The translations under genes and the position numbers were made by a program. Below are positions 20,181 to 20,318 of a stretch of DNA of 49,203 nucleotides, piece by piece. The stretch is from an uncultured Clostridium sp. (lineage in GTDB: Bacteria; Bacillota; Clostridia; TANB77; CAG-508). Location: contig CAYXUA010000001.1 of NCBI GenBank assembly GCA_964468015.1, positions 1 to 49,203 of the forward strand, in the 5' to 3' direction. A model generated the notes under the pieces. It was not told the DNA's origin, did no database searches, and was given only the letters and a program-made list of their open reading frames with translations. Each line of letters starts with the position of its first letter. The first letter of the stretch is position 1.

Positions 20181-20221
20181 ACAAAAATAAGACATATAGA
20201 CCTAGTTCTTCTTACTAAGTC
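20181..20221 (-). terminator. Intrinsic terminator after the P2 leader ORF
   Basis: Minus strand reads GACUUAGU-AAGAAGA-ACUAGGUC, followed by UAUAUGUCUUAUUUUUGUG. It is homologous in position and sequence to the P1 terminator. Confidence 0.5.
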
Positions 20222-20237
20222 ATATATGTCCCATTTT

Positions 20238-20318
20238 TTATATATTCATTCTTCTTATTTTCTTTAATATACTACCTGTGTGTACAGCCTCAAGGCTTTC
20301 AGCGGTTACTTTCCCCAT
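20238..20318 (-). CDS. Leader mini-ORF of the P2 locus (26 aa)
   Basis: ATG 20318..20316. Product is MGKVTAESLEAVHTGSILKKIRRMNI-stop. It has the same module as the N-termini of giant proteins A and B, with only (AC)3.5. Confidence 0.45.
   Translation of the reverse strand: MGKVTAESLEAVHTGSILKKIRRMNI

Follow-up and report, generated by a model that had tools for sequence, protein, structure and literature searches.

Phase variation by simple sequence repeats is textbook knowledge for small-genome pathogens (Neisseria, Haemophilus, Helicobacter, Campylobacter). In the opa genes of Neisseria, (CTCTT)n, and in sabA and hopZ of Helicobacter pylori, (CT)n, the repeats lie in the signal-peptide coding regions of surface proteins; in hif of Haemophilus influenzae, a (TA)n tract is located between the −35 and −10 elements. 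According to a passage of a published report, the (CT)n repeat of H. pylori oipA is also found in the signal-peptide coding region and is phase-variable (PMC10564699). A passage of a second report places the (ATCTTTC)n repeat of H. influenzae hmw in the 5′ UTR, where it is transcribed and acts through RNA structure, with an RNase III hairpin (PMC12721329). Among these systems, the hmw repeat is the nearest known case to the free-standing module that we describe below. Ribosome-dependent attenuators include the trp and his leaders of enterobacteria and the bmrCD, vmlR and lmo0919 leaders of Firmicutes.

Here we analyse a stretch of 49,203 nt from an uncultured Clostridium sp. (contig CAYXUA010000001.1; hereafter, the window), in which four units, named P1, P2, A and B, are probably copies of one 5′ expression module with a slippage-prone dinucleotide tract. 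In the fused units (A and B) the tract belongs to the N-terminal extension of a surface protein, and in the free-standing units (P1 and P2) to a short upstream ORF. The fused form is a well-known kind of switch in an unexpected group of organisms. As in opa, oipA, sabA and hopZ, a short tandem repeat lies in a 5′ coding part that is presumably removed upon export, there are several paralogous surface genes per genome, one frame out of three is ON, and mixed ON/OFF states are found. Unlike opa and oipA, the module is hosted by Gram-positive, spore-forming gut commensals known only from metagenomes, its repeat is (CA)n or (TA)n and always follows a nucleotide-conserved 18-nt box, and many of its copies are unfused.

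As for the free-standing form, the proposed coupling of a mutable repeat to transcription attenuation is, as far as we can tell, new. It would share with hif and hmw the control of an intact downstream gene at the transcript level by repeat number; however, hif and hmw act through spacing or hairpin length and give graded expression, whereas the module would act through a translated ORF and its reading frame, with a period of 3 repeat units. Like the trp, his, bmrCD, vmlR and lmo0919 leaders, the module consists in the relatives of a translated short ORF, an intrinsic terminator and then a structural gene that probably lacks its own promoter. Its outcome, as proposed from the geometry, would be set by the position of the ribosome relative to the hairpin, as in the trp, his and bmrCD attenuators. 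In the latter this position is physiological (charged tRNA, antibiotics), whereas in the module it would be genetic, heritable and stochastic. Moreover, the pairing that could act as an antiterminator in the (TA) class shows no covariation, and the module has no codons for a sensed amino acid. It does not belong to the classical amino-acid attenuators, although its mode of action may resemble theirs.

Four units in the window

The window has a GC content of 31% and represents a chromosome stretch of spore-forming Clostridia. It contains ddl, murF, ypeB-like and sleB-like genes, genes for giant DUF11/SdrD_B/VWA surface proteins and two pilin-like genes. A preliminary description of this DNA had reported a family of four leader-peptide units, two free-standing and two fused to signal peptides. 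All four exist in this arrangement, and all lie on the minus strand, to which the coordinates in this section refer; several details of the description needed correction. The order of elements in the module is a promoter, an RBS, 4–7 variable codons and the 18-nt box (nAAAnCnTTGnnnCTGTA), directly followed by (CA)n or (TA)n.

In P2, a promoter TTGAAC-17-TATAAT (20379–20407), found by consensus scan with 10/12 matches, precedes a leader ORF of 26 aa plus stop (MGKVTAESLEAVHTGSILKKIRRMNI; 20238–20318, ATG at 20318) which is in the long frame. The box of this leader, GAAAGCCTTGAGGCTGTA (20283–20300), is followed by a (CA)3 tract, CACACA (20277–20282), too short for high mutability and likely stable. 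The leader stop codon is located 6 nt ahead of the stem foot of an intrinsic terminator, which the scan identified as a long hairpin followed by a T-run (20180–20239; −30 kcal/mol, z = −5.95). Further downstream, an extended −10-like element (TATGGTAAGAT; 20070–20080), shared with P1 and with the related locus L062, lies ahead of the P2 cargo, pilin-like gene 2 (KQGITLIALIITIIVLLILAGV; 19585–20031), whose N_methyl motif scores E = 0.0049, below the Pfam cut-off.

In P1, the consensus scan found the promoter TTGCAA-17-TATAAT at 17701–17729. The leader ORF (17611–17667, ATG at 17667) encodes 18 aa plus stop (MRKTKLESLAAVHTHTHS) and is in a short frame, predicted to be OFF. Its box GAAAGCCTTGCGGCTGTA (17632–17649) is followed by a (CA)8 tract (17616–17631), and the conserved tail VNLLVKIKRMNI with its stop codon (17577–17615) is out of frame; a (CA)9 tract would read it. 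Scan and folding place the intrinsic terminator at 17522–17571. The cargo is pilin-like gene 1, with a Gly_rich_2 domain (15257–17245); its ATG at 17237 is in a different frame from the body of the gene. The promoters and terminators of both P1 and P2 were recovered by consensus scans, both hairpins fold far better than shuffled sequence, and the two terminators are homologous, with stems kept and loops diverged. The scans and the folding agree with the anatomy originally given for these two units, i.e., promoter, RBS, short ORF and homologous terminator.

The tracts of genes A and B start 33–36 nt after the ATG. The N-terminal extension of gene A (49031–49110) comprises the ATG at 49110, the box at 49095–49078, a (CA)8 tract at 49077–49062, an A9 run and the signal peptide, and is in frame (ON). 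The extension of gene B (39880–39960) is likewise in frame (ON) and comprises the ATG at 39960, the box at 39945–39928, the interrupted tract CACACATACACACAC at 39927–39913, which is probably stable, and an A9 run; a promoter-like element, TTGCAT-17-TAATAT (40043–40071), was read from the sequence by eye and is not a scan result. The A9 runs are found ~15–16 nt past the CA tract in both genes (49038–49046 in A, 39888–39896 in B); their context, …CAAAAAAAAAT…, codes for QKKI and constitutes a second slippage-prone tract of the N-terminal extension.

The 24-nt DNA consensus first proposed for all four units is exact in P1 and P2 only, A having 3 mismatches and B no match at ≤3 mismatches. The peptide consensus holds for three units and not for four because in P1 the (CA)8 tract yields an 18-aa peptide and the tail VNLLVKIKRMNI is one CA unit out of frame. 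The (His-Thr)n run after which the family had been named is present; it is merely translated (CA)n, CAC-ACA being His-Thr, and the frame-changing hypermutable tract behind it had been overlooked.

Distribution of the module and variability of its repeat

More than 230 loci with the module were found across gut Clostridia MAGs and metagenomes. A scan of MAGs for the degenerate box followed by YAYAYA, with one genome per species, gave at least 115 stretches, of which the listed ones all come from uncultured gut Clostridia MAGs (human, rabbit, sheep, deer); box and repeat were also present in most of the >120 metagenome stretches located via a downstream anchor. A profile of the leader peptide, the search suggested at the outset, matched >3000 small unnamed ORFs (E ≤ 1, among 8000 candidates scored), and the best 120 of these matches are 29–72 aa long and have neither names nor Pfam domains. 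Since the module pattern gave 0 matches in 100 shuffles and recurs in hundreds of loci elsewhere, chance is excluded; the recurrence also disposes of the case, envisaged in the preliminary description, of a module absent from other DNA. In all cases, the cargo is related to the cell surface or to export; it comprises pilin-like proteins, proteins anchored at their N-terminus, giant DUF11/VWA proteins and a SipW-like peptidase operon.

No Pfam or NCBIfam model matches the leader (first 100 aa of A and B), which agrees with the earlier statement that the leader is not YSIRK or KxYKxGKxW. At the gathering score, Rfam matched neither the window nor any of four multi-copy loci, and at a relaxed threshold it gave solely spurious miRNA matches on a palindrome. 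Likewise, blastn with the P2 unit gave no real match in phage and plasmid collections, and full-text literature searches yielded no account of the box or of a repeat in an upstream ORF before a terminator. In a 2025 review on phase variation the words "terminator", "leader" and "dinucleotide" are absent, and Clostridia are discussed for invertible promoters only. The 5′ module is widespread among uncultured gut Clostridia and has so far escaped annotation.

In the relatives the tract can be of a different kind: (TA)n, which encodes Tyr-Ile, and mixed tracts occur as well; therefore, the His and Thr residues themselves cannot matter. This bears directly on the idea of a classical amino-acid-sensing attenuator that reads His/Thr codons, like the his or thr leaders. 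What speaks for it is the anatomy: in the short leader ORF His and Thr codons alternate, and a terminator lies behind it. However, Tyr-Ile occupies the same place in relatives, the codon number is unconserved and ranges from 1 to >20, and the cargo consists of surface proteins and not of biosynthetic genes, so that regulatory codons for a sensed amino acid are not recognizable. We find this explanation hardly credible.

The (CA)n tracts spread evenly from 3 to 36 units, while the (TA)n tracts range from 3 to 17 with a mode at n = 9 (28/54). Repeat number differs in 5 of the 7 groups of copies whose flanks are at least 92–93% identical. At the P2 locus, three other samples with an identical MurF protein carry (CA)3, (CA)≥5 or (TA)n, and several leader codons differ as well. 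All these repeat lengths, like the ON/OFF states given below, are as read in consensus assemblies. Six of six Logan contigs covering the P1 locus stop inside the (CA) tract, and every Logan contig reached via the neighbouring proteins of P1 and P2 ends at the module; among 130 module copies from MAGs, 12 tracts are cut by the contig end and 24 lie within 150 nt of it. Contigs ending in the tract are only suggestive of switching within a clone.

The same contig ends could be by-products of recombination, the box and repeat being a site at which leader/cargo cassettes are exchanged or converted. The cut and end-near tracts of the MAG copies, the P2 differences in both leader codons and repeat type among strains with identical MurF, and the nucleotide-level conservation of the box would fit this proposal. 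Nevertheless, repeat-length heterogeneity alone predicts contig breaks, homologous exchange would need more than the 18 nt of the box, and the frame geometry described below would be left without explanation. Furthermore, no recombinase was found among the window ORFs covered by our non-exhaustive scan, and the copies share one strand, both in the window and in each of the multi-copy loci noted, which excludes inversion; on these two grounds an invertible-DNA or shufflon switch, for which the copies would not be direct, was rejected as well. Overall, we consider exchange at the box quite improbable, and repeat-based switching in general highly probable.

The conserved 18-nt box

The composition of the box was derived from a sample that is independent of the box itself, i.e., from a metagenome scan anchored downstream of (TA)n; for the (CA) class, the metagenome loci contained no unbiased sample. 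The 52 distinct (TA)-class boxes follow the consensus [G/A]AAA[G/C]C[C/G/A]TTG-NNN-CTGTA, with T9, T15, T17 and A18 invariant. Third codon positions have a mean entropy of 0.34 bit, as against 0.62 bit for first and 0.71 bit for second positions. Because the third codon positions are the least variable, which is the opposite of peptide-level selection, the constraint on the box acts on DNA or RNA, and we rejected selection on the peptide as its main cause.

This result weighs against the proposal of a secretion or sorting function, in the manner of YSIRK or KxYKxGKxW, for the conserved N-terminal peptide (MxKxAESLEAV...), a possibility also raised, as a secretion-targeting extension, when the units were first noticed. 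The peptide does precede signal peptides or prepilin-like leaders, and within the box the S/T and L/V/I exchanges seem conservative. On the other hand, besides the pattern of the third positions, His-Thr and Tyr-Ile are interchangeable, roughly every second fused gene is out of frame, the free-standing copies are attached to no protein, and there is no match in Pfam or NCBIfam. A sorting function of the peptide is thus very improbable.

None of the roles that we considered for the box as a nucleic acid element (mini-hairpin, SD-like site, cre half-site, −35 element) fits all copies. An RNA mini-hairpin (AGCC/GGCT) is broken by the frequent GATACT and CAGCT variants, and inspection of the box sequences for cre, SD-like or 16S-complementary sites gave half-site or non-conserved matches only. 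The box as a −35 element with (TA)n as its −10 fits (TA)9 numerically and is inapplicable to the (CA) class; in (TA)9 copies, the TTG of the box and a 17-nt spacer would put a TATATA −10 at the end of the tract, which may be a coincidence. The nucleotide-level conservation of the box is not accounted for by the repeat-switch model.

The fused form

In the 26 fused loci of the relatives, one post-repeat frame is open for up to 1609 codons; its product is a pilin-like protein (…KGITLVALVVTIVVLLILAG…), a giant adhesin or a protein with a signal peptide. In 12 loci the leader ATG is in frame with this product, and in 14 it is out of frame. All 14 out-of-frame genes have an intact ORF of 47–868 aa in another frame directly past the repeat (three of them cut by the contig end), and in the cases that were checked no further start codon lies between the repeat and the prepilin-like motif. 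Since the out-of-frame alleles keep an intact downstream ORF, the loss of frame would be reversible rather than a sign of decay. On one contig (L101), two paralogues are in different states, one ON and one OFF. A 5′ coding repeat, a repeat number that differs among near-identical copies of the module and an intact ORF in out-of-frame alleles are the sequence features by which slipped-strand phase variation is recognized, and the 14/26 proportion reads as the classical footprint of slipped-strand translational phase variation. In genes A and B, as in the other fused loci, the tract lies in an extension ahead of a signal peptide or prepilin-like leader, and one frame out of three would make the protein.

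The free-standing form

In the free-standing loci all three frames stop within ~45 codons, and a strong hairpin and a T-run follow; the gene behind them codes for a protein that is pilin-like or anchored at its N-terminus. The frame geometry was analysed in the 64 loci whose terminator folds at −12 kcal/mol or better. In 61 of the 64 loci, the 5′ foot of the terminator is reached by exactly one frame, which stops inside the hairpin in 57 of those 61, and the remaining two frames stop at least 13 nt upstream of the stem foot. When the stretch ahead of the stem was shuffled, exactly one frame did so in 49% of the trials. With one representative per tail family, the rule holds in 17 of 20 families. 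In addition, the short-frame stops of the (TA) class stay TAA or TAG despite A/G variation in the third base.

The terminator stem of the (TA) class is 97% paired and has 36 double-sided changes, as compared with 16.6 ± 4.2 in shuffles; the pairing is lost when the partner columns are slid. With −27.7 kcal/mol, this terminator is the thermodynamic default in the absence of a ribosome. A competing 5-bp pairing between segment 1 and segment 2, a possible antiterminator, can form in all (TA)-class copies. Its changes are one-sided only, so that it shows no covariation, and it is far weaker than the terminator.

The start of the cargo gene lies within 60 nt behind the T-run in 21 of 53 loci and within 100 nt in 31 of 53, and a promoter-like motif occurs in only 2 of these 31 gaps. 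On the other side, each leader has its own −10 and RBS, the (TA)-class −10 being located ~20 nt before the RBS in relatives. Because the short gaps are nearly devoid of promoter motifs and the leaders have −10 and RBS of their own, leader and terminator probably lie within the 5′ leader of the cargo transcript in these loci.

The situation in the window itself is less clear-cut. The gap between the terminator and the pilin-like gene measures 149 nt at P2 and ~285 nt at P1, the latter including a 131-nt palindrome. P1, P2 and L062 form a sub-family having a long gap with a conserved extended −10-like element (TATGGTAAGAT, TATGGTATAAT or TATGATAAGAT), so that the pilin-like genes of the window probably have their own promoter, and the contribution of the P1 and P2 leaders to cargo expression may be small. 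As the window gaps are long, the P2 tract is short and the P1 cargo is frameshifted, the general model rests mainly on the relatives.

These features would fit a reading in which only the fused form is functional, by translational phase variation, and the free-standing leaders are decaying, non-regulating stubs left by cargo replacement or promoter gain. Indeed, the pilin-like genes of the window and of L062 have a conserved promoter-like element of their own, the separation between leader and pilin gene is 150–300 nt, with a long palindrome between them in two cases, and the P2 tract is only (CA)3. In addition, the tails of the free-standing leaders look like what follows the repeat in the fused leaders, fitting a common origin. 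Against this reading, the leader, both short-frame stops and the terminator are kept across many species, the terminator covaries, the rule of one frame in three holds in 17 of 20 unrelated tail families against an expectation of 49%, and the cargo starts ≤100 nt behind the T-run in 31/53 loci with almost no promoter-like motif in the gap. We therefore regard the stub explanation as unlikely, which also applies to the related suggestion, made in the preliminary description, that the free-standing form is a 5′ stub from cassette exchange: the terminator covaries and the frame geometry is kept across 20 tail families. The attenuator peptide named there as another option, on the other hand, is near our preferred explanation for the free-standing form; what it had missed is the repeat switch.

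Some copies occur in larger arrangements. In loci L104 and L009, three or four pilin-like genes stand in tandem, every one with a (TA)n leader to itself, and some of these genes have leucine-rich-repeat-like C-terminal parts. The n values are 9, 11, 9 and a contig-cut 6 in L104, and 9, 8 and 9 in L009; at most one copy per array is in the long frame. In another species (L245-L252, positions 3001–3754), the leader MQKLESLEAV(HT)4GNLINKKINITKGRLCPFLN ends 56 nt ahead of a SipW-like signal peptidase gene, followed by small unknown proteins and a second S26 peptidase, a layout that we take to recall the sipW-tasA-type fibre operon. In the assembly collection, 119 indexed blocks contain this 38-aa leader in identical form.

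Other features of the window

The palindrome between the P1 terminator and the pilin-1 promoter (17354–17484) is an inverted repeat with perfect arms of 42 nt around a GC-richer centre of 47 nt. It occurs only once in the window and in none of the other loci retrieved, is the source of the spurious Rfam miRNA matches, and has no homology to the palindrome found in the same relative place in L062. Pilin-like gene 1 (15257–17245, minus strand) has AAACGGAATAACA where pilin-like gene 2 has AAACAAGGAATAACA; 2 nt are missing, at a position that is not a repeat, and the gene is either a pseudogene or affected by a sequencing error.

At 47218–47270 (minus strand), gene A (630 aa) overlaps the next ORF (2322 aa) in a different frame. 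One glycine-rich domain spans this junction, at which no repeat is visible, and the two ORFs are probably one gene of ~2950 aa split by a frameshift. Directly past the stop of gene B (35080–35212, minus strand), a TTG that has its own RBS is the most likely start of a VWA protein of 2510 aa; if this start is true, gene B and the VWA gene would form one operon under the repeat-bearing start of B. Finally, a VirD4/TraG-like coupling protein (11222–13321) and an AAA_21 (AbiEii-like) ATPase with a small downstream partner (25581–27509), both on the minus strand, hint at mobile or defence content beside the housekeeping genes.

Discussion

Taken together, the data are best explained by a module in which the gain or loss of one repeat unit would shift the reading frame and so turn surface-protein genes on or off in a heritable and reversible manner. 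We consider this explanation, with its two wirings, probable as a whole. In the free-standing wiring of P1 and P2, the tract of the short upstream ORF would be followed by the intrinsic terminator in the 5′ leader of the cargo. In two of the three frames translation would stop within ~20 nt of the repeat, the ribosome would be released early, the terminator would fold and the cargo would be OFF. In the long frame, the ribosome would stand at the foot of the hairpin or on its 5′ arm, termination would be prevented and the cargo would be transcribed (ON). The predicted states in the window are long or in-frame for P2, A and B, and short for P1.

The anatomy of the module, the polymorphism of its repeat length, the mixed frame states, the covariation of the (TA)-class terminator and the frame geometry are direct observations. 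The mechanism goes one step further. Judging from the frame geometry, we lean slightly towards a ribosome-dependent attenuator, while the assignment of the long frame to the ON state is tentative, with a likelihood a little short of even. Likewise, the switching rate of the tract is inferred, and the ribosome is assumed to follow the polymerase closely enough. In Bacillus, the coupling between transcription and translation is reported to be poor, and therefore the invasion of a terminator 50–90 nt behind the start by the ribosome is less certain. Two further points stand against the model, namely the clustering of (TA)n at n = 9 rather than a spread of values, and the frameshift in the P1 cargo itself.

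Whether the free-standing units represent an undescribed phase-variable transcription attenuator with the box as a dedicated cis element appears to us evenly balanced. According to this reading, unmodified downstream genes or operons (pilin-like and anchored proteins, SipW-type peptidase) would be switched heritably and stochastically; the box could, for example, promote slippage, cause RNA polymerase to pause for the ribosome, or bind a common regulator.

From a practical point of view, such genes resemble, in MAGs, pseudogenes with a frameshift or 30-aa ORFs left without annotation, and short-read assemblies break at the module. The box followed by (YA)n provides a simple sequence signature to locate these surface genes. 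If the proposed wiring is true, a repeat connected via a mini-ORF and a terminator would switch genes whose coding sequence stays untouched, and abundant uncultured gut Clostridia would control a whole family of surface genes by repeat switches.
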